A DNA stretch of 38,622 bases from Acidobacteriota bacterium. Its GTDB lineage: Bacteria; Acidobacteriota; Vicinamibacteria; Vicinamibacterales; 2-12-FULL-66-21. Each line of letters opens with the position of its first letter. Position 1 is the first letter of the stretch. Location: contig JANPJN010000808.1 of the NCBI GenBank assembly GCA_031425515.1, forward strand, positions 1 to 38,622, given 5' to 3'. The position numbers were made by a program, and so were the translations under genes. The notes beneath the pieces are model-generated. The model searched no databases and had not been told where the DNA came from. It saw only the letters and a program-made list of their open reading frames with translations. This document shows, one piece after another, positions 12,131-37,688 of this stretch.

Positions 12131-13617
12131 GGGATGTCCTCTGCCGCGCGCGGGCGGTGCCCGCCGTCGGCGTTGGCCGCGGCGGCGGCAAACAGGCCGG
12201 CCGGCGGGCGTTGCCCTGTCCACAATTCGAATTGCCGCTCGGCCTGGGCCACGAGCATCTCGAGGCCGCCGATCGTCAGGCACCCCGCGGCCCGGGCGCG
12301 CCGGAGGAGCGGCGTCTCGGCCGGCACGTAGACCAGATCGAACACGATTTCGCCGTCGAGCGCCACGCGGGCCGTCGGATCGTCCTGCGGGCCGCGGCTC
12401 CCCGCCGATGTGGCATTGACCAGCACGTCCCAGCTGCCGGGGGCCGGCGGCCACACGCCGGCGGTGGCGCCGGACAGGCGGGCAACCTCCGCCGCAGCCT
12501 CCGGCCGTCGCGCGCAGATGGTCACGGCCGTTCCCTGGCTCACGAGCGCGACCGCCACCGCCCGGGCGGCGCCGCCGGCGCCGACCACCGCCGCGCGCGT
12601 GCCCTTGAGCGCGATGCGGCCGGCCAGCGGGGCGAGAAAACCCTCCACGTCGGAATTCGCGCCGACCCAGCGCCCGTCCCGGACGATGAGCGTGTTGACC
12701 GCGCCGACGCGCCGGGTGAGCGCATCGACCTCGTCCAGGTGATCCAGCATCCCGACCTTGAAGGGGGCCGTGATGCTCGCGCCCCGCATCTTGGTGGCGC
12801 GGGCGAACGCGACGAAGTCCGCGACGTCGGCGGCCTGGAGCGGGACGTACACCGCGTTGAGCCCGAGGGCCGCGAAGCCGGCATTGTGCATGACCGGAGA
12901 GAGCGAGTGCGCGATCGGATTGCCGACGACGCCGAAGAGCGCGGCGTCGGGGCGGATCCGGCGGAAGCGGAACTCGTTCACCAGCCGATCGGCCGGCATC
13001 TGCCCGGGCGCGACGGCGTCTCCGGCATACGTCCAGCGATTGCGCAACCGCGCCGCCAGCAGTCGGGTCGGCACACCAGCCTGCCCCATCGCCAGCAGCA
13101 CATGCCCATCGACGTCGTCCGATGCCGAGAAGAGCGGTTCGTCTGCCAGCGCCATCAGGGACACCGCGTCGGTGAGCCGGGTGGCCGTGACGGCAATCTT
13201 GATCACCTCCGCCCCCGTCGCGCGCATCGTGCGCGCCCGGTCGGGCAGGTCGGCGGGCACGCCGTCGAAGTCGTGCATCGAGAGCACCACGCCCCGGCCA
13301 TGCCGGCGGCGCACCAGCGCGGGGGCGAAGGCGGCGCGCGCCTCGACATCCACGTACTCGGCGCCAGCGGCCTGGGCTTCGGTCAGGATCCGTTCGCGCT
13401 CCGCTTCGGAGCCCGCAAACGCCCCCCCCTCCCATGCCGCGCGGCACGTCACCACCACCGGACGGCGCCGCCCTTCGAGCGCGCCGGCGGCGTCCGGGCG
13501 GTCCACGGCGTCGAGGCGCACCTCGACGAGGTCGGCGTTGGCGGCGGCGTCGCGCGCACGGCGCACCTCCTCCATCGTCCGTCCCGTGACCGTGACACAC
13601 ACCAGGGGATCGCGCAT
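12127..13617 (-). CDS. aroDE: Bifunctional 3-dehydroquinate dehydratase (type I) / shikimate 5-dehydrogenase fusion
   Basis: The N-terminal half is AroD-like (VCVTVTGRT, LVEVRLD, GAEVIKIAVTA with the Schiff-base Lys). The C-terminal half is AroE-like (FGVVGNPIAHSLSPVMHNAGF, SITAPFK, GAVNT, VVGAGGAARAV). The ATG at 13617 is preceded by AGAGG. Confidence 0.9.
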   Translation of the reverse strand: MRDPLVCVTVTGRTMEEVRRARDAAANADLVEVRLDAVDRPDAAGALEGRRRPVVVTCRAAWEGGAFAGSEAERERILTEAQAAGAEYVDVEARAAFAPALVRRRHGRGVVLSMHDFDGVPADLPDRARTMRATGAEVIKIAVTATRLTDAVSLMALADEPLFSASDDVDGHVLLAMGQAGVPTRLLAARLRNRWTYAGDAVAPGQMPADRLVNEFRFRRIRPDAALFGVVGNPIAHSLSPVMHNAGFAALGLNAVYVPLQAADVADFVAFARATKMRGASITAPFKVGMLDHLDEVDALTRRVGAVNTLIVRDGRWVGANSDVEGFLAPLAGRIALKGTRAAVVGAGGAARAVAVALVSQGTAVTICARRPEAAAEVARLSGATAGVWPPAPGSWDVLVNATSAGSRGPQDDPTARVALDGEIVFDLVYVPAETPLLRRARAAGCLTIGGLEMLVAQAERQFELWTGQRPPAGLFAAAAANADGGHRPRAAEDIP

Positions 13618-13625
13618 GAGCCTCT

Positions 13626-13665
13626 AAAACGCAAAAAGCCTCCTCAGCCGGGGCTGAGGAGGCTT
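13626..13665 (-). terminator. Intrinsic terminator hairpin directly upstream of aroDE (attenuator terminator)
   Basis: The minus strand reads AAGCCUCCUCAGC-CCCG-GCUGAGGAGGCUU, a 13-bp perfect stem, followed by UUUGCGUUUU. It ends about 9 nt before the AGAGG SD and the ATG at 13617. Confidence 0.7.
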
Positions 13666-13694
13666 CGTGGAATCCTTATCCTGCCGTGTGCAGG

Positions 13695-13793
13695 TTAACG
13701 AACCGCCCCCCCAGCGCACGCGTACCACCACCAGAAAGAACCTGCGGTTCCGCGGCGGAATCGATACGGCTGGGTGAGGAGCGGAGACGTCAA
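13695..13793 (-). CDS. Candidate aromatic (Trp) leader peptide; minimal extent, start codon unresolved
   Basis: The frame contains TTC TGG TGG TGG TAC (F-W-W-W-Y, 13722-13736) and stops at TAA 13697-13695. There is no in-frame ATG. In-frame alternative starts are TTG 13793, TTG 13832, TTG 13838 (GAGGG lies 10 nt upstream) and GTG 13913. Confidence 0.4.
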   Translation of the reverse strand: MTSPLLTQPYRFRRGTAGSFWWWYACAGGAVR

Positions 13794-13802
13794 AACGTTG
13801 TG

Positions 13803-13832
13803 ACGATAACAGAGGGATCCGATGGCTGTCAA
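13803..13832 (-). promoter_or_regulatory. Sigma70-type promoter candidate for the leader and aro/trp operon
   Basis: The minus strand has TTGACA (13832-13827), an 18-nt spacer, then TATCGT (13808-13803) preceded by TGt (extended -10). Confidence 0.35.
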
Positions 13833-13872
13833 TTTCAAGCGCGGCGGACCCTCGCGGGACCGGGCTTTCTCC

Positions 13873-13901
13873 TTGACCGGCAAGCAGTTACTGCTTATAA
13901 C
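13873..13901 (+). promoter_or_regulatory. Sigma70-type promoter candidate for the S55 peptidase gene
   Basis: TTGACC (13873-13878), a 17-nt spacer, then TATAAC (13896-13901). GGAG (13933-13936) precedes the ATG at 13940. Confidence 0.45.
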
Positions 13902-13939
13902 TGGATCATCCACTTCCCCCAGGCCCTGACCCGGAGCTT

Positions 13940-15823
13940 ATGAAGATCCGCACTGCCGCCGCGGCGCTTGCGCTCATCGTTGTCTGTTGGAGATCGACGC
14001 CGGCCGTGTCCGTGCTGATGCCGATCGAAGAGGTTCGCCCTGGCATGACGGGCATCGGCCGCACTGTCTTCGAGGGGACGGATCTCGAGGAGTTCAAGGT
14101 GTCGATCCTTGGTGTGCTCCGCAACATCCAGGGGCCCAACCGCAACCTGATTCTCGCGCGTCTCGAAGGCGGCCCCCTCGCAAAGACGGGCGTGGCGGCC
14201 GGCATGAGCGGGAGTCCTGTCTACATCGACGGGCGGCTCGTCGGCGCCGTGTCGTATTCGATCGGGGCGTTTCCAACCGAGGCGATTGCCGGCATCACGC
14301 CCATTGGCGAGATGACGGACGCCACGCAGATGACGAAGCGCCCGGCCTCCGCCCAGGCGCGGATCGAACTGCCCCTCACGCGCGAGACGCTCGCGGCATC
14401 GCTCCGCTCGGCGTTCGCCCGCGTGGATCCATTCGCCCGTCGCCCGGGCGACGTACAGGTTTTCGGGCTGCCCGAGGCCGTGGGTGCGCAGATGGGCGCG
14501 ATGCTGCGGCCAATCTCCACGCCGCTCGTGATGAGCGGGTTCGAGCCGGCGACGATGGATATGCTCTCGGGCGCATTCGGGTCCGCTGGATTCACGCCGG
14601 TCGTCGGCGGCGCGGCCTTCGGATCGGGCGCGGCCCTCCCGGGCGCACGCGATCTCGAGCCGAAGGGGGCGCTGCGGGAGGGGGATGCGATTGGCGTGTC
14701 GCTCGTCGGCGGCGATCTGGAGATGGGCGCCACCGGCACCATCACGCATATCGACGGCGATCGGATCTACGCCTTCGGCCACCCGTTCTTCGGTCTCGGC
14801 CCGGCGCAGTTCCCGATGACGCGCGCCTACGTCTACACGATGCTTCCGAGCCTGATGTCCTCCTTCAAGATCTCCTCGATGGGCGAGGTGATCGGCACCA
14901 TGCAGCAGGACCGGGCCACCGCCATCGCCGGCACGCTCGGGCCCGGGCCCGCCACCATCCCGATGGCCGTCTCGCTCCAGTCCACGCGTGAGGACGGCAG
15001 CCGCTCGACCCGCACGTTCAACTACCGGGTCGCCCACGACCAGGCGTTCACCCCGCTGCTCGCCTACGTGGCGCTCGCCAACACGATCACCGCCTACGAG
15101 CGGCAGTTCGGCCCGTCGACGTTCGCCGTCAGCAGCCGCACGCGCATCAAGGGGCATGCCGACCTGCTGCTGGAGGACGTCTTCACAGGCGACAGCGCCA
15201 CGCTCGGGGCCGCCACCGCCGTCGCCGGCCCGGTGTCGATGCTGCTCGCCAACGACCTCGAGCCGATCACGGTCAACGGCATGGACGTTACCGTCGAAGC
15301 CAGCGAGACCTCACGCAGCGTGAAGATCGAACGCGTCTGGCTCGACGAGGTACGGCCGCGCGCCGGCCGCACGGTGCCGTTGAAAGTCCTCACGCGCAGC
15401 TATCGCGGCGAGGAGAAAATCTCCACCGTTCCAATCGCGATTCCGGCCCACGTGTCGGGCGCCCTGTCGATTCTCGTGACGGACGGGCGGCAACTGAATG
15501 CGATCGAACAGCGCGATCTCCGCCGCTCCCTCCAGCCGCAGAGCGTGGCCCAGATGATCCGCGTGCTGAACGACACGCGCCGCAACAACCGGATCTACGT
15601 CCGCCTCCTCAACGGCCGCCCCGGCGCCGTCGTCAACGGCGAGGCGCTCACGGCGCTTCCCCCCTCGGTCCTGTCCGTCATCGAAGGCGACAGCAACGGC
15701 GGCAGCTACACCCCCATCCGCAGCGCCCCGGTCGGCGAATGGGAGATCCCGATGGGGTCGGCCGTCACCGGCTCACGGCTGCTCGCCATCGACGTCGAGT
15801 CCCGCGGCGCGCCGGGCCGCTGA
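13940..15823 (+). CDS. Secreted peptidase S55 (SpoIVB-like) domain protein, 627 aa
   Basis: Signal-like N-terminus (MKIRTAAAALALIVV). The N-terminal domain carries AAGMSGSPVYIDGRLVGAVSY, matching the GMSGSP catalytic-serine motif of SpoIVB/S55 peptidases. The long C-terminal region has no motif I recognise. Confidence 0.75.
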   Translation: MKIRTAAAALALIVVCWRSTPAVSVLMPIEEVRPGMTGIGRTVFEGTDLEEFKVSILGVLRNIQGPNRNLILARLEGGPLAKTGVAAGMSGSPVYIDGRLVGAVSYSIGAFPTEAIAGITPIGEMTDATQMTKRPASAQARIELPLTRETLAASLRSAFARVDPFARRPGDVQVFGLPEAVGAQMGAMLRPISTPLVMSGFEPATMDMLSGAFGSAGFTPVVGGAAFGSGAALPGARDLEPKGALREGDAIGVSLVGGDLEMGATGTITHIDGDRIYAFGHPFFGLGPAQFPMTRAYVYTMLPSLMSSFKISSMGEVIGTMQQDRATAIAGTLGPGPATIPMAVSLQSTREDGSRSTRTFNYRVAHDQAFTPLLAYVALANTITAYERQFGPSTFAVSSRTRIKGHADLLLEDVFTGDSATLGAATAVAGPVSMLLANDLEPITVNGMDVTVEASETSRSVKIERVWLDEVRPRAGRTVPLKVLTRSYRGEEKISTVPIAIPAHVSGALSILVTDGRQLNAIEQRDLRRSLQPQSVAQMIRVLNDTRRNNRIYVRLLNGRPGAVVNGEALTALPPSVLSVIEGDSNGGSYTPIRSAPVGEWEIPMGSAVTGSRLLAIDVESRGAPGR

Positions 15824-18173: not shown

Positions 18174-18920
18174 TCAGGAGCTCGACTTCCCTCTGACCGT
18201 CGTGTGTGCGACGAGCCACACGAAGTTGACCGCCACCGGCCCGCCATCCGACTGCGCCGGTTCCAGCCGCCCGCGCGAGAGCGCGTCCACCAGGGCCGTC
18301 ACGTCCCGGCCCTCCTGGTTCGCCGTGAGCAGTTCCAGCCCCGACACGCGCCCCTCGCGCGTCACGATGGCCGACAGCGGCACCACGCGGTCCTCATCTT
18401 CAATCGATCGCTCGAGCGTGGCATAGACGACGCCGTGGCCTGGAACGCTGGGCGCCTGGATGCGCCCGCCCAGCCGGACGGGATTCAGATTGGATCCCGA
18501 CGGCGCGCCGAGGACGGTGATCGTCGCCGCCAGCGAGTCGGCCCGCTCCGGCGACGCGAAGTGCAGCATCGAGAGGACCGCCGCGGCGCAGAGGAACGTG
18601 CCGGCGGTGGACGCGAGGCCGATCCACACGAGGTGCATGTCGTCGAAGGCCCGGCGCGCGCACGCCAGCCAGGACTCGTGCGCCTCGGCCCGCAGCCGGC
18701 TGACAACACCGGAACGGACGCCGGTCCAGTCGTCGGAGGGTGCCGGCGCGGCGGCGAGGCGAAGCGAGTCACCGAGCGCCCGGAGATCGTCGAGCGATTC
18801 GCCGCACGCACGGCAGTCGCGGACGTGCCCTTCGACCGCGATCTGCTCACGCACCGGCAGCTCCCGGTCGTAGAAGGGCTGCAACCGGTCCTGCACGTCC
18901 GGGCACGTCCAGGGCGTCAT
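18174..18920 (-). CDS. Zinc-binding (ZAS-type) anti-sigma factor with a TonB-C-like periplasmic domain
   Basis: The N-terminal segment CPDVQDRL...HVRDCRAC contains H-x3-C-x2-C. One TM segment is present (LVWIGLASTAGTFLCAAAVLSML). The C-terminal roughly 100 aa resembles TonB C-terminal domains. Its ATG overlaps the ECF sigma stop (ATGA). Confidence 0.75.
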   Translation of the reverse strand: MTPWTCPDVQDRLQPFYDRELPVREQIAVEGHVRDCRACGESLDDLRALGDSLRLAAAPAPSDDWTGVRSGVVSRLRAEAHESWLACARRAFDDMHLVWIGLASTAGTFLCAAAVLSMLHFASPERADSLAATITVLGAPSGSNLNPVRLGGRIQAPSVPGHGVVYATLERSIEDEDRVVPLSAIVTREGRVSGLELLTANQEGRDVTALVDALSRGRLEPAQSDGGPVAVNFVWLVAHTTVRGKSSS

Positions 18921-19534
18921 GCGCTCCTCAACTCTGCGCGAAGCGCTTCGCGCGCCCGGGCCAGCCTGGATTTCACCGTGCCGACGGCGATGCCGAGCGA
19001 GAACCCTATCTCCTCGTAGCTCAGGCCGTCAATTTCCCGGAGGACGAGGGCGGTCTTGTGATCGAAGGGCAGACGGTCGAGTGCGCCGCGGACGCGTTCG
19101 GCGGCCTGCTTCTGGCTGAGCAGCACGTCGGGGGCGCCCGCGTGCCGCGGCGCCGGCAGATCGCCATGGCTCCGGATGTGATCGTCGAGCGACACCTGCT
19201 GCGCGCGGTGGCGCCGGCGCCAGAAGCGCTGCCGGTTGCGCGCCTGGTTGACGACGATGCGGTAGATCCAAGTGCGGAGGGTGGACTGGCCCCGGAAGCC
19301 CGGGAGGGTGCGAAAGACCCGGAAGAACACCTCCTGCGACAGGTCGAGGGCTTCGTTGTGATCCCCGAGCAGGTTGAGGGAGAGCTGGTAGACCATGCGC
19401 TGATGCTCGGTCACGAGCTCCGCGCAGGCGTCTTCGTCGCGGGCGGCACAGCGCTGGATGAGGGCGGCTTCCCGTCCACCGACGTCCGTCCATGTGAGGG
19501 AGGGAACGGGCTTCACAAACAGTCCTTCCGCCAT
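18917..19534 (-). CDS. ECF-family RNA polymerase sigma factor (sigma-70 group 4)
   Basis: A region 2 (LVTEHQRMVYQLSLNLLGDHNEALDLSQEVFFRVFR..FRG.S.LRTWIYRIVVN) and a region 4 HTH (LVLREIDGLSYEEIGFSLGIAVGTVKSRLARAREAL) are both present. Confidence 0.9.
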   Translation of the reverse strand: MAEGLFVKPVPSLTWTDVGGREAALIQRCAARDEDACAELVTEHQRMVYQLSLNLLGDHNEALDLSQEVFFRVFRTLPGFRGQSTLRTWIYRIVVNQARNRQRFWRRRHRAQQVSLDDHIRSHGDLPAPRHAGAPDVLLSQKQAAERVRGALDRLPFDHKTALVLREIDGLSYEEIGFSLGIAVGTVKSRLARAREALRAELRSA

Positions 19535-22645: not shown

Positions 22646-25600
22646 TCACCGGCAGTCCCCCTCCAGCGACAATCTGCGCAGCATCTTCGCCAGCCCCTGG
22701 CGGCTGATGCCCAGCGCCGCGGCCGCCCGCGCGCGGTGGCCTCCGGCAGTCGCCAGCGCCGCCTTCACGAACCGCCGCTCGAACTCCGCGCGTGCTTCTT
22801 CGAACGACCCGCCGCTCCGAACCGCGGCCTGCGCGACGTGCGCGGGCACGGCCGTCGCGCTGATGCGGCCGCGCGCCGGCGAGTGCACCGCCATCCACGC
22901 GATCACGTTCTGGAGCTCGCGTACGTTCCCCGGCCACTCGTAGCGCGACAGCGCGGTCAGCGTCTCCGGCGCCAGCGTGGCGCGCGATCCCATGCGCGCC
23001 GAGGCGTCGTTCCAGAACGACGCGGCGAGCATCGGCACGTCGGCGGCGCGGTCCCGCAGCGGCGGCACCTCGATCCGCACGACATCGAGACGGAATCGCA
23101 GGTCCGCGCGGAAGCGGCCGGCCGCGGCTTCTTCCGACAGCCGGCGATTGGTGGCGGCGACGATACGGACGTCGACGCGGCGGGAGGAGTTCTCCCCCAC
23201 GCGGCGGACCTGGCCGTCCTGGAGCACGCGCAGCAACTTGGCCTGCGCGCGCGCGGAGAGCTCGCCGATCTCGTCGAGGAACAACGTGCCGCCGTCTGCC
23301 TCTTCGAAGAGACCCGCGCGCTCGCTGACGGCGCCGGTGAACGCACCGCGGGCGTGGCCGAAGAGCTCCGCCTCGAGCAGGTCATCGGTGAGTGCCGCGC
23401 AGTTGATCGCGCAGAAGCGGCGGTCGCGCCGCGGGCCAAGTCGATGGATCGCGCGGGCGACGAGCTCTTTGCCGCTGCCGCTCTCCCCTTCGATGAGCAC
23501 GGGGAAGGGCGCGCGCGCGGCGCGCGCGATGGCATCGCGCATCGTGCGCGCGGGAGAACTGTCGCCGATGATCTCGGCGGCCGGGTGCGAGGCGGGGGCC
23601 GGGACCTCGCGGTCGAGCACGCCGCGCACGTGGGCGGACATCGCGAGCGCGCCGACCCTCAGGAGGGCCCCGGCGCGGGCCGGATCCGTGGTCGTCCCGG
23701 CCGACCAGCGCGCCGCGAGGCTGCCGATCGTGTCTCCGCTGTACCGAAGCGGCTCGGCCGCCTGGCACGGCTCCGTGCGGGGATCGAGCGCGACGCTGAG
23801 GCCGCTGGCGAGCACGCGCCAGGCCGCGAGCGGTTCGCCGCGCCAGGCGTCGCCGGAGATTGCGAGCGGGCGGCGATCCGGGTCGGGACCTGTCACGAGA
23901 AGCGTGGCGGCGCGGAGACGGGCGCGCAGATGGTCCGCCATCCGGTCGATTGCCGTCCCGTCGTCCGTGGCCGTCTGCCCGATGTGCAACAGGGCTTCGA
24001 GGTCGCCTACCGGGTTCGAGCCGCCCGCGCACGCCGCGTGGGCGATGGCGACGGCTCCGCTGGTCTCGACGAACGTGCGCGTCTGCGCGTCGAGCGCGAT
24101 GCTCTCCACGCGCGCCCTGACGGCCCGCGCGTAGAACCGGAGCAGCGGGGGGCACCGGTACGACGCGGCGGCGAGCCGCGCGGCGAGACGCAGGCTGTCT
24201 TTCGACGGCGCCCCGGCGGCTGCGATCTCGAGCCCGGCGAGCCTGAGCCGGAGCGCCTCCAATGGAAGATGCGCGGCGGTTGCCGCCTCGAGCCCCTCGC
24301 GCAGGTATTGCGCGGCGGACGCCGGATCGCCGCCGGCGGCGGCTGCCTGCGCCAGCACGCGGAGCGCCGAGGCGCGCGGCTGCGGATCGCCGCATTCGCC
24401 GGCACGGGTCAGCGCCCGCCTGGCGGCCGCCACGGCCGCCGCCACCGATTGCTCGGCCATCAGGATGCGCGCGAGCGTCCGCAGCCCCCAGCCCGATAGC
24501 CCGCCGGCCGCGTGTGCCTCCGCTTTTCGCAGCGTCGCGCCCGCTTCTCCGTATCGCCCCTGCCAGAACAGGCATCGTGCGAGCGCCGCCGCCGCCTGTT
24601 CCGCCAGCACCCCGTCGTCCAGACTCTCAGCCGCGGCGGCCGCCGCGCGCAGGATCGCTTCCGCCTCGACCAACCGGCCGTCGTCTGATCGCGCCACGCC
24701 GAGACCGATCCCGGCGCGTATGCCCCATACGCCCGAGGGGGCCACCTGACGCGCGACGTCGAAGCTCGCGGCCGCGGCCGCCACCTGGGCACGCTCGAGC
24801 CGAAGCCAGCCGATCTCCACGGCGCAGCGAGCCGCCTCCTCGTGATCGCGGCGTGCGGACAGCACACGCTGGGCGCGATCGAGCAGCCGCGCGGCGGCGG
24901 CGTGGCGGCCGGCGCGCGCGAGGCCCCGGGCGCGTTCGGGCGCGCGCCGCAGGATGCCGGACGGCGGCCGGGGAGCGGTGCCCGGCACGGGACGCGCGGG
25001 AGTGGCGGCGGACGGCGACACCTCGTAGGCCGGCGACATCTCGTGGACCACCATGGCGGTGGAGCCACCCGCGCGGCCGGCGCCACCCGGGCGGCCGGCG
25101 CGCCCCTCGAGGCGCGCGAGGAAGAGGCCCGGCCATCCGCCGGCGTGCCGTGCGGCGTCGGAGAGCTCTTCGAGCGTCGGGAGGTTGTCGTCCTCGAGGT
25201 AGACCATGCGAGTGAGCGCGGCGGCGTCCATGCGGTCGATGGCTACGGCCGGGCGAGGCGGTGCGCTCCGGTTGAAGGCGAACAGCACGTGCCGCCTCGA
25301 GCTGGCGGACCCGAGGTGCAGCAGCGTACGTGCGACGGGTTCGCGCCGGTCGGCACCCCGGTCCGCCAGAATGCAGACGTGCCGGCTCGCGAGCGCGGCG
25401 CCAAGAGGGCCGGCATCCGGAAGCAGGGCGGCCGACACCGGGATGTAGCCGGCGAGCCTCGCCGTGCGCGCGGCCGCGAGCCGAAGCGTGCGCAGGCCGG
25501 ACTGCGGCTCCCCCGTCACCTCGATCGCGCACGGGCCCGGAGGCGCATCCGCGTCGAGCGCTTCGCGGAGGATCTCGAGCACGGGCCGCGGCTGGAGACG

Positions 25601-25990
25601 GACACCCATCAGCCGCCCCATCGCTCCGCCGCCGCGGACGACCGGACGCAGCAGATAGTCCGCCAGCGGGCGCGGGAGATCCACGCCGTGCGCGCGCAGA
25701 AACGACGCCGCGTGCGCGAGCAGGCGGCCGCCGGTAACGCCGCCGGCCGCCAGCGGCGACGCGATTGCATAGGCCTCGAACGTGCGCTTCGCGTCCGCCA
25801 TGCCGTAGTCCACGAGCGGGGCGATGAGCGGATGCCGGAGATTGGCGACGATGGCGCACCAGTGGTTCCAGGCGAGCTGATCGGCGCGTGTGCCCGCAGG
25901 GGCCACCCGGATCCGGACGTGCGCCCCCGTCGCCAGATCCATCCAGCGGGGGCCTGTTCCCACGAAGCGATCGGCAAGCAGGTGCGGCAT
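22646..25990 (-). CDS. Sigma-54-dependent transcriptional activator with a long N-terminal sensory region (kinase-like, STAND-like, TPR-like, GAF-like), 1114 aa
   Basis: The C-terminal AAA+ module carries [44 protein letters not shown] and [10 protein letters not shown], followed by a Fis-type HTH ([19 protein letters not shown]). I placed the start at ATG 25990 (MPHLLADRF), because the track start at 26203 overlaps aroC. The exact start is uncertain. Confidence 0.85.
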
Positions 25991-26086
25991 GCGGAGGCGG
26001 GCTGCAAGACCGCCGCCCCGGAGGCGTGGCCCGCATTCCGGCCGGAAACCGCGCGGCGGGTCGCCCGGGAGTGCAGAAACTTCGTA

Positions 26087-26092
26087 TACAAT
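26087..26092 (+). promoter_or_regulatory. -10-like hexamer TACAAT ten nt upstream of the aroC ATG (near-leaderless geometry)
   Basis: gtaTACAATtgcccctcgaATG. No SD and no convincing -35 element. Confidence 0.25.
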
Positions 26093-26102
26093 TGCCCCTC
26101 GA

Positions 26103-27326
26103 ATGGTGCGTTTTCTCACCGCGGGCGAATCACACGGCCGCGCGCTCGTCGTTATCCTCGAAGGCATTCCTGCCGGTCTGTCGATCGATCCCGACGCGAT
26201 CACGGCCGATCTCCGCCGACGCCAGGGGGGCTACGGGCGCGGCCGGAGGATGGCGATCGAGTCGGATCGCGCCGAGATCCTGTCGGGTGTTCGCGCCGGC
26301 GAGACGATCGGCGGCCCAATCGCGATGTCGATCGAGAACCGCGACTGGGTCAACTGGCAGTACACGATGCGCACGGCCGTCGAGCCCCCGGCCGAAGGCG
26401 GGGGCGCCCGACGCGCGCCGGTGACGCGGCCGCGCCCGGGGCATGCCGACCTCGCCGGCGTCGCCAAGTACGGCCGCGCCGACGTGCGGGACATTCTCGA
26501 GCGCGCGAGCGCCCGCGAGACGGCAGCACGCGTGGCGGCCGGGGCCATCGCGCGGCAGTTCCTCGAGCAGGCCGGCATCCGCCTCACGAGCCACGTGTTT
26601 TCCGTCGGGGCCGCGGCCCTTCCGGGCGGCACCACCGTGACGTTTGCGCAGGCCGACGCGTTGGCGGCCGACGCCCCGCTGCGGTGCGTGGACACCGACG
26701 TCGAACGCCGGATGATCGAGGAGATCGATACCGCGCGAGAGGCCGGCGACACGAAGGGCGGGGCCTTCGAAGTGATCGTCACGGGGCTGCCGGTCGGGCT
26801 CGGCAGCTATGTGCAGTGGGACCGGAAGCTCGATGGGCGGCTGGCGCAGGCACTGATGTCGATCCCCGCCATCAAGGCCGTCGGCATCGGCCTCGGGCCC
26901 GAGGCGGCGGTGCGGCCCGGGTCGCGCGTCCACGACGAAATTCTTCCCGATCCGGGCGGCGAGCGGGCGACGGGTGTCTCACGGCCGACCAACAACGCCG
27001 GCGGGCTCGAGGGAGGCGTGACCAACGGCGAGGATCTGCGCGTCTCGGCGTGGATGAAGCCGATCTCCACCCTCATGAAACCCCTGCGCTCGGTGGACCT
27101 TTCGACCATGGACGAGGCGTCCGCGGCGATCGAACGCAGTGACGTCTGCGCCGTGCCGGCCGCGGCGGTCGTCGGCGAGGCGATGGTGGCGCTCGTGCTC
27201 GCCGACGCGCTCATCGAAAAATTCGGCGGCGACTCGATGGCCGAGATCCAGCGCGCGATCGGCGCCTGGTCCGACACCCTCCACGCGCAGTTCTCGAAGG
27301 AAGGGCTCGCCGACGCCAGACCCTGA
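26103..27326 (+). CDS. aroC: Chorismate synthase
   Basis: Motifs MVRFLTAGESHGRAL, RRQGGYGRGRRM, RPRPGHADL, ERASARETAARV and SDVCAVPAAAVVGE. I placed the start at ATG 26103. Confidence 0.93.
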   Translation: MVRFLTAGESHGRALVVILEGIPAGLSIDPDAITADLRRRQGGYGRGRRMAIESDRAEILSGVRAGETIGGPIAMSIENRDWVNWQYTMRTAVEPPAEGGGARRAPVTRPRPGHADLAGVAKYGRADVRDILERASARETAARVAAGAIARQFLEQAGIRLTSHVFSVGAAALPGGTTVTFAQADALAADAPLRCVDTDVERRMIEEIDTAREAGDTKGGAFEVIVTGLPVGLGSYVQWDRKLDGRLAQALMSIPAIKAVGIGLGPEAAVRPGSRVHDEILPDPGGERATGVSRPTNNAGGLEGGVTNGEDLRVSAWMKPISTLMKPLRSVDLSTMDEASAAIERSDVCAVPAAAVVGEAMVALVLADALIEKFGGDSMAEIQRAIGAWSDTLHAQFSKEGLADARP

Positions 27327-37614: not shown

Positions 37615-37688
37615 GCGGGCTTAGCATAGTGGTAATGTCCTGGCTTCCCAAGCCAGTCAGACGGGTTCGATTCCCGTAGCCCGCTCCA
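37615..37688 (+). tRNA. tRNA-Gly (anticodon CCC), CCA encoded
   Basis: I folded the cloverleaf by hand. Acceptor stem: GCGGGCT/AGCCCGC. D arm: GCAT-AGTGGTA-ATGT. Anticodon stem: CTGGC/GCCAG with loop TTCCCAA. T arm: ACGGG-TTCGATT-CCCGT. Discriminator T, then CCA. It closely resembles E. coli glyU. Confidence 0.93.

Follow-up and report, generated by a model that had tools for sequence, protein, structure and literature searches.

A probable ribosome-mediated tryptophan attenuator in front of the aromatic amino acid supraoperon of Vicinamibacterales (Acidobacteriota)

How is an operon that unites the genes of the tryptophan (Trp) branch with genes for common aromatic steps and with tyrA regulated, when a single intergenic region stands in front of all of them? 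This question is raised by a 38,622-nt stretch of DNA from a member of the Vicinamibacterales (Acidobacteriota; NCBI GenBank assembly GCA_031425515.1, contig JANPJN010000808.1; the whole stretch, with a G+C content of ~70%, is referred to below as the window), in which an 11-gene aromatic/Trp operon, in the order aroDE-trpEGDCFBA-aroQ-aroG-tyrA, reaches to ~3142 on the minus strand. The leader region, the sole intergenic region in front of this operon, lies in a 322-nt non-coding gap that extends, on a minus-strand read of 13500-14100, from the aroDE ATG (13617, minus) to the ATG (13940) of a divergent plus-strand gene. A first-pass annotation, made from the sequence alone, saw in this gap the geometry of classical trp attenuation, and the conserved spacing and masked-ribosome folds described below support that view. 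Judging from sequence comparison and modelling, we consider it highly likely that the element is a classical ribosome-mediated transcription attenuator, which would sense charged tRNA-Trp and possibly charged tRNA-Tyr as well. The support is comparative and in silico, and comprises the elements themselves, their conservation, their covariation and in-silico switching.

The leader combines the parts of a trpL-type attenuator, namely an open reading frame (ORF) with its own start and stop, tandem UGG codons, an intrinsic terminator, an antiterminator that excludes it and, in silico, the corresponding ribosome geometry. In the order of transcription, these parts are as follows.

13832-13803, minus strand: promoter of the leader and operon (-35 box TTGACA at 13832-13827, 18-nt spacer, TG extension at 13811-13810, -10 box TATCGT at 13808-13803)
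13793-13695, minus strand: leader ORF of 32 codons plus stop, (M)TSPLLTQPYRFRRGTAGSFWWWYACAGGAVR, with start TTG at 13793-13791 and stop TAA at 13697-13695
13784-13769, minus strand: segment 1, CCGCUCC-UCA-CCCAGC, within codons 4-9 of the ORF; predicted to pair with segment 2 in ribosome-free RNA
13751-13737, minus strand: hairpin that folds just 5' of the Trp codons, GGAACC-GCA-GGUUCU
13733-13725, minus strand: the Trp codons UGG UGG UGG, flanked by UUC (13736-13734) and UAC (13724-13722)
13715-13703, minus strand: segment 2, the G-run GCUGGGGGGGCGG, a partner of either segment 1 or segment 3 (the antiterminator)
13694-13680, minus strand: hairpin right after the stop codon, CCUGC-ACACG-GCAGG, nested within the antiterminator loop
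13666-13653, minus strand: segment 3, the terminator 5' arm GAAGCCUCCUCAGC, common to antiterminator and terminator
13648-13635, minus strand: segment 4, the terminator 3' arm GCUGAGGAGGCUUU, overlapping the U-tract UUUGCGUUUU at 13635-13626
13625-13621, minus strand: Shine-Dalgarno (SD) sequence AGAGG of aroDE, preceding the ATG at 13617

The aromatic codons TTC TGG TGG TGG TAC (13736-13722) and the in-frame TAA, on which the first-pass annotation was built, are both found on the minus-strand read, and its proposed pairing of the G-run GCUGGGGGGGC (13715-13705) with GCCUCCUCAGC (13663-13653) likewise holds, with 11 bp including two G-U pairs. The terminator hairpin is present together with its U-tract and the SD sequence; the 13 bp originally described (13665-13636) extend to 14 pairs (13666-13635) around a CCCG loop, with a free energy (dG) of -27 kcal/mol, and the model would place an attenuated 3' end near 13633-13627. 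Since the upstream neighbour is divergent, this terminator cannot serve a preceding gene. The suggestion that a C-rich segment further upstream (13781-13768) could also pair with the G-run was borne out, as this 1:2 pairing is seen in minimum free energy (MFE) folds and in the RNAalifold consensus of 15 close relatives. The leader RNA as a whole folds at -88 kcal/mol (z = -4.4 vs shuffles), and the 2:3 duplex reaches -25.7 kcal/mol in the window.

A comparative set of 42 non-identical leaders (21 from metagenome-assembled genomes (MAGs), 20 from metagenome contigs, and the window) was gathered by AroDE scans from Vicinamibacterales loci with enough upstream DNA, the AroDE identity being 47-80%. 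In the comparison with relatives that the first-pass annotation had proposed, the ORF with its UGG run, the stop codon, the G-run with its pairing to the terminator 5' arm, and the terminator are present in 42/42 loci, including a low-G+C relative (L094/L128). The synteny (peptidase gene, gap, aroDE, trpE) is conserved too, with trpE after aroDE in every relative extending far enough. The distance from the first UGG nucleotide to the beginning of segment 2 is 17-21 nt in 39/42 loci, and the stop codon stands at -14 to +13 nt from the 3' end of segment 2 (mostly at +6). All 42 loci have a terminator with dG of -20 to -31 kcal/mol followed by a U-tract, and a 2:3 duplex of -15 to -28 kcal/mol, typically 2-5 standard deviations better than shuffles. 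On the other hand, the lone occurrence of TGGTGGTGG in the 38.6 kb of the window is not significant in itself (0.21 expected; at least one in 17 of 100 shuffles), so that the decisive evidence is the conservation of the whole arrangement in 42/42 loci. Among the sampled loci, the element was not found at the same position, upstream of aroDE, in Blastocatellia, Terriglobia, Pyrinomonadaceae, Planctomycetota, Nitrospinota or Desulfobacterota.

Compensatory changes, likewise part of the comparison proposed in the first-pass annotation, are seen in both the 2:3 and the 3:4 helices. Pairs were counted on 11-nt blocks (A2), which were anchored using the pairing and therefore lean towards structure; on these, the 3:4 terminator has 90.9% of cells paired (slid controls, 33-58%) and the 2:3 antiterminator 88.5% (slid controls, 38-52%), each with double changes at 5 of 11 pairs. 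A whole-leader MAFFT alignment (A1), which misaligned segment 2 in the deep clade, was excluded from these counts. At one position of segment 3, which is C in 16 and U in 13 distinct rows, the change is matched by G or A in segment 2 as well as in segment 4, a double covariation that at the sequence level matches the expectation for a strand with two alternative partners. In an alignment-free test with double-centring, cognate pairs had an advantage over non-cognate ones of 1.7 kcal/mol for the 2:3 duplexes and of 1.4 kcal/mol for the 1:2 duplexes, and none of 5000 permutations reached either value. For the 1:2 helix, support comes from this comparison of cognate with non-cognate pairs and from the RNAalifold consensus; matched variants include CUCAGC/GCUGAG, CCCAGC/GCUGGG and CUCAAC/GUUGAG.

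Two further hairpins, individually non-significant, are treated here as clade-specific accessories. The one preceding the Trp codons takes the form GGGAC...GUCC(U) in relatives, ending 2-3 nt before UAU-UGG, with dG at or below -5 kcal/mol in 28/42 loci (mainly of the main clade), and in the window its two arms have changed together at synonymous sites (GGG/UCC to GGA/UCU). The post-stop hairpin is present in 28/42 loci with differing stems (CCUGC/GCAGG, CCCGCAG/CUGCGG, CCGCG/CGCGG, CCGUC/GACGG). As a conjecture, the former might serve as an RNA polymerase pause site, while the latter might shorten the antiterminator loop or likewise cause pausing.

Is the leader ORF a genuine coding frame, and where would it start? 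The promoter named in the first-pass annotation (TTGACA-N18-TATCGT, 13832-13803) is confirmed, with 10 of 12 consensus matches, and is supplemented by the TG extension. In a consensus scan it is the sole sigma-70-like match, and the leader terminator the only strong terminator, across the 14-kb operon region. The extended -10 box (TGnTAnnnT) is kept in 37/42 loci, and in 34/42 it ends 9-12 nt upstream of the leader start, with no SD sequence in between, while spacings of 15-18 nt are rare; in the window, the distance from the -10 box to TTG 13793 is 9 nt. The first-pass annotation listed this in-frame TTG among several candidates and left the choice open. The choice is now settled by the relatives, as among the 37 loci with a recognizable -10 box the homologous site holds TTG in 19, ATG in 12 and GTG in 6, usually with a Thr codon next. 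Because TTG 13793 aligns with the ATG or GTG of relatives and these starts lie 9-12 nt past the extended -10 box, a leaderless or near-leaderless transcript is probable; a normal distance from the -10 box to the transcription start would leave a 5' untranslated region of ~0-6 nt.

Conservation is specific to the Trp frame. An in-frame start codon 12-28 codons upstream of the Trp run, with no intervening stop, is found in 41/42 loci (4/42 and 17/42 for the other two frames), and a stop codon ahead of the terminator arm in 42/42 (16/42 and 33/42, respectively). The ORF length varies between 24 and 39 codons, and relatives differ freely in the sequence 5' of the UGG run yet keep the frame.

Two side observations concern this promoter region. 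The distance from the -10 box to the start (13791-13808 in the window and the homologous sites of loci L001-L128) correlates with the start codon, being mostly 9-10 nt for TTG and GTG and mostly 11-15 nt for ATG, and the string GTTTTGACG is almost invariant among TTG-start loci; the correlation may reflect constraints on 5'-end-dependent initiation. Further upstream, many relatives share a ~40-nt element, CCAGTTATAAGCAGTAACTGCTTGCCGGTCAAGGAGAAAG (minus strand, 13864-13903), with hardly a base changed. Its plus-strand reading is a TTGACC-N17-TATAAC promoter of the divergent peptidase gene, with a 6-bp inverted repeat (AAGCAG-TAA-CTGCTT, 13896-13882) in its spacer as a possible operator. In five loci (L004, L006, L007, L015 and L019) the same element also provides the -35 box (TTGCCG) of the leader promoter, the two promoters overlapping back to back.

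The ability of a ribosome to select between the alternative folds was assessed in silico by masking 31 nt around an A-site UGG in a nascent RNA without segment 4, or by centring the mask on the stop codon. With the ribosome on UGG, the 2:3 helix forms in 37/42 loci, and in 42/42 when a queued second ribosome is masked as well. With the ribosome on the stop codon, no 2:3 pair forms in 41/42 loci, and at most one in the remaining locus. In free RNA the 3:4 terminator forms and the 2:3 helix does not (42/42), the 1:2 helix being seen in the fold of the window. These folds follow the logic that the first-pass annotation had put forward.

These observations suggest the following scheme, in which we infer that the ORF is translated, where transcription starts, that ribosomes stall and that the switch responds to Trp. 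The transcript would begin only a few nucleotides upstream of TTG 13793, and its 32-codon ORF would be entered by a ribosome without the aid of an SD sequence. When charged tRNA-Trp is plentiful, the ribosome would reach UAA at 13697-13695 and its footprint would hide segment 2 (13715-13703), so that segment 3 (13666-13653) would pair with segment 4 (13648-13635) and RNA polymerase would terminate in the U-tract at 13635-13626, before aroDE. When it is scarce, the ribosome would stall with a UGG codon (13733-13725) in the A site and its leading edge 2-8 nt short of segment 2. The exposed segment 2 would then pair with the newly made segment 3, the terminator would be blocked, and transcription would read through into aroDE-trpEGDCFBA-aroQ-aroG-tyrA. 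In ribosome-free RNA, segment 1 (13784-13769) would sequester segment 2, and the terminator would form.

Several points weigh against this scheme. The covariation was scored on the anchored blocks among related sequences and reflects few independent events (one main clade split), and the shuffle and permutation controls ignore phylogeny. The single-sequence z of the 1:2 helix is weak (about -1 vs shuffles) in this 70% G+C RNA. At full-length equilibrium the terminator is favoured despite a stalled ribosome in 39/42 loci, the terminator plus 1:2 remaining the MFE structure, so that antitermination has to be either kinetic, which is also how the textbook system works, or steric. In the model, moreover, the stalled lead ribosome would not cover segment 1, unlike in E. 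coli, and the exclusion of the 1:2 helix would be steric or achieved via a trailing ribosome. Finally, the efficiency of initiation is uncertain for an ORF that has no SD sequence and, in 19/37 loci, a UUG start 9-10 nt past the -10 box. UUG is an atypical leaderless start, and in the organisms examined for this, leaderless mRNAs are translated inefficiently from UUG.

Which amino acids would the switch sense? Within an 8-codon window, the leaders contain three Trp codons in 35/42 cases, two in 5/42 and four in 2/42. All 42 also contain one or two Tyr codons, which alternate between TAT and TAC among loci, both in the main clade (motif S-Y-W-W-W-Y-A, i.e. Y-WWW-Y) and in the deep clade (W-W-Y-W or W-R-W-Y-W), while Phe codons occur in only 5/42, including the window. 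The first-pass annotation had read the run as covering Phe, Trp and Tyr; of these Trp and Tyr stood while Phe did not, and on the aligned sequences the conserved aromatic codons are those for Trp and Tyr only. The retention of Tyr but not of Phe matches an operon that has tyrA, along with the chorismate mutase and 3-deoxy-D-arabino-heptulosonate 7-phosphate (DAHP) synthase genes, and in which Pfam scans reveal no pheA. It is therefore conceivable that the same switch integrates two amino acids, with the Tyr codons also slowing the ribosome. On the other hand, attenuation usually responds little to one or two isolated codons, UAU/UAC may be retained for reasons of RNA structure or context, and the Tyr after the Trp run is changed to S, H, R or G in several loci. 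Overall, we judge dual Trp/Tyr sensing to be a possible but somewhat doubtful refinement of the Trp attenuator; this judgement presupposes that attenuator and is not to be added to those given below for its competitors.

The competitors proper would dispense with one part of the mechanism or another. A translation-independent riboregulator (T-box-like, a TRAP-like protein or a small-molecule riboswitch) could stabilize the antiterminator and leave the ORF incidental, given that the RNA is highly structured, that ORFs open easily in 70% G+C DNA and that UGGUGGUGGUACGCG superficially resembles the T-box core GGUGGUACCGCG. However, a non-coding model explains neither the frame-specific conservation of start and stop with its switching among TTG, ATG and GTG, nor the upkeep of the frame where the sequence 5' of the UGG run diverges. 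In the window, Rfam returned only a tRNA at gathering score, and neither RF00513 (Trp_leader) nor RF00230 (T-box) nor any other family matched 13550-13960 at E ≤ 10. The T-box likeness was rejected on this ground and on the absence of the GGUGGNACC core and of AGAGA or AGUA motifs; TRAP-type control was rejected as well, the longest (G/U)AG chain in the 183-nt leader being 1, as compared with 9-11 triplets spaced by 2-3 nt. We regard such a regulator as very unlikely. Conservation of the S-Y-W-W-W-Y-A core could instead point to a TnaC-type nascent-chain sensor of free Trp, or to a main role in trans, as documented for the trp attenuator products of Sinorhizobium meliloti (PMC6614838, PMC7298713). 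Nevertheless, the C-terminal half of the peptide and the context and position of its stop vary (ending in GAVR, EAPC, YAR or WCAA), as would not be expected of an arrest motif. Induction by free Trp would run counter to the purpose of a biosynthetic operon, and the core conservation is accounted for by the single codon available for Trp together with RNA pairing, while a role in trans would supplement attenuation in cis rather than replace it; this alternative appears highly improbable. A non-regulatory origin, in which the element would insulate divergent genes or terminate transcription partially and constitutively and the Trp-run ORF would be a by-product of G-rich sequence, would be compatible with the non-significance of the lone TGGTGGTGG and with the many chance helices that GC-rich RNAs form. 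It is hardly tenable in view of the arrangement found throughout the diverged loci, the low-G+C relative among them, with its fixed spacing and covariation, and of its absence upstream of aroDE in the other sampled classes and phyla.

With ribosome-mediated Trp attenuation as the preferred explanation, a more specific version of it can be formulated. A leaderless or near-leaderless, often UUG-started upstream ORF (uORF) might load ribosomes at the 5' end of the transcript and integrate the charging of tRNA-Trp and tRNA-Tyr, with a stalled ribosome or disome sterically blocking the 1:2 helix (the codons being placed in the 1:2 loop), and so gate the 11-gene supraoperon. We put this combination forward tentatively and consider it rather doubtful; if true, no attenuator would have been defined in Acidobacteriota before it, and sensing would here make natural use of non-AUG, 5'-end-dependent initiation.

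The operon behind the leader agrees with the outline in the first-pass annotation, Pfam scans confirming the DAHP synthase, chorismate mutase and TyrA genes. Its members and the upstream neighbour are listed here.

13617-12127, minus strand: aroDE fusion, the first structural gene (Pfam DHquinase_I + Shikimate_dh)
to 5511, minus strand: trpE, trpG, trpD, trpC, trpF, trpB and trpA (Pfam Chorismate_bind, GATase, Glycos_transf_3, IGPS, PRAI, PALP and Trp_syntA)
5532-5194, minus strand: AroQ-type chorismate mutase gene aroQ, 112 aa (Pfam CM_2, E = 1e-23)
5134-4085, minus strand: DAHP synthase gene aroG, with a ferredoxin-like domain (Pfam DAHP_synth_1)
4047-3142, minus strand: tyrA (Pfam PDH)
13940-15823, plus strand: secreted S55-like peptidase gene, the divergent upstream neighbour

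The chorismate mutase gene, which was unlisted, occupies an apparent gap of 376 nt that separates trpA from the DAHP synthase gene, and its ATG (5532) overlaps the 3' end of trpA; no second attenuator was found in that interval. Elsewhere in the window, the tRNA gene (37615-37685, plus strand; Rfam 61.5 bits) has an anticodon loop, CUUCCCAAG, suggestive of tRNA-Gly(CCC). A gene for an extracytoplasmic function (ECF) sigma factor (18917-19534, minus strand) and the zf-HC2 anti-sigma factor gene whose start it overlaps (18174-18920) form an ordinary pair, and a very long ORF (22646-26203, minus strand, ~1185 aa) lies within the most G+C-rich part (76% at 24-26 kb).

An unrelated, classical-looking Trp leader was encountered in a Desulfobacterales MAG (CAMYLV010000017.1; locus L053, 1-270, minus strand). 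There, TTGACA-N17-TAGACA is followed by an ORF that begins with ATG and contains AAT AAT TGG TGG TGG CGC (MYPLKPTRTDISSNNWWWRIFNRELCPPSAN, then stop), by two hairpin-plus-U-tract terminators, and by an AAGGAGG SD sequence in front of a gene running off the locus. It illustrates WWW attenuators near aromatic-pathway genes in another phylum of the same data set.

Vicinamibacteria abound in soil and are difficult to grow in culture, and to our knowledge almost nothing is known about gene regulation in them. Full-text literature searches returned no description of such an attenuator for Acidobacteria or Vicinamibacteria. The leader peptides have no NCBIfam match at E ≤ 10, a 47-aa extended leader frame has no homologue in the protein database searched, and the leader ORF appears to be uncalled and unannotated in public protein sets. 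The present set offers a clean, clade-wide and testable example of ribosome-mediated attenuation in Acidobacteriota, in which the 24-39-codon ORF can now be annotated and the 42 aligned leaders can serve as the basis for a covariance model, there being no match in Rfam, NCBIfam or that protein database. It also suggests that a single sensor of Trp, and possibly of Tyr, may govern the aromatic pathway as a whole, with its common steps, its Trp branch, chorismate mutase and TyrA. Furthermore, SD-independent initiation in this phylum could be studied in a natural system, as the start (UUG, AUG or GUG) keeps a conserved distance of 9-12 nt from the -10 box.

How does this leader compare with known systems? 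In Bacillus subtilis, trp genes likewise reside inside an aromatic supraoperon with a terminator/antiterminator switch in the leader; the difference is that TRAP binds 11 (G/U)AG repeats and needs no leader translation, whereas the present leader has no such repeats. Leader peptides with WW or WWW and a terminator/antiterminator switch are well documented for Proteobacteria and Actinobacteria, with examples in E. coli, Corynebacterium and Streptomyces (PMC6614838, PMC1262725). The actinobacterial trp attenuators (Corynebacterium, Streptomyces), also predicted through comparative genomics, share with the present element a high G+C content, double or triple UGG codons, GC-rich terminators with U-tracts and alternative helices (PMC1262725). 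They belong to another phylum, are unrelated in sequence, and differ in operon composition and in the conserved Tyr codons. The trpL peptide of Sinorhizobium meliloti carries three consecutive Trp codons. This 14-aa peptide is encoded by a ribosome-dependent attenuator before trpE(G) in another soil bacterium, and its products (rnTrpL/peTrpL) have documented trans-acting RNA and peptide roles, in contrast to the 32-codon leader described here, which would control the whole pathway in one operon (PMC6614838, PMC7298713). A parallel for the uORF, which is predicted to lie at or near the 5' end and has no SD sequence, is provided by the mycobacterial leaderless poly-Cys sensory small ORFs, where stalling on tandem codons controls an operon, as proposed here (10.1101/834739). 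Those act on translation by unmasking a ribosome-binding site and start with a 5' AUG or GUG, whereas the present element has a canonical intrinsic terminator and most often a UUG start, its 5' end being a predicted one.

The enterobacterial trpL (RF00513) resembles the proposed mechanism, with a short ORF bearing tandem UGG codons, helices 1:2, 2:3 and 3:4 with a U-tract, ribosome position picking the fold, and a segment 2 that starts ~17-20 nt after the first UGG. At the same time, there is no detectable homology in sequence or structure (no Rfam match at E ≤ 10), and the two Trp codons of the enterobacterial leader compare with three here. In E. coli trpL the Trp codons lie within segment 1 and the stop just before segment 2, whereas the present element has its Trp codons in the loop that joins segment 1 to segment 2, and its stop 6 nt past segment 2. 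Further differences are the start 9 nt past the -10 box with no SD sequence, aroDE as the first gene, and the addition of chorismate mutase, DAHP synthase and tyrA to the operon. Overall, the mechanism is a textbook one and the advance lies in distribution and detail rather than in principle, the unusual details being the SD-less UUG start beside the promoter, the placement of the regulatory codons, the conserved Tyr codons and the control of an aro/trp/tyr supraoperon.

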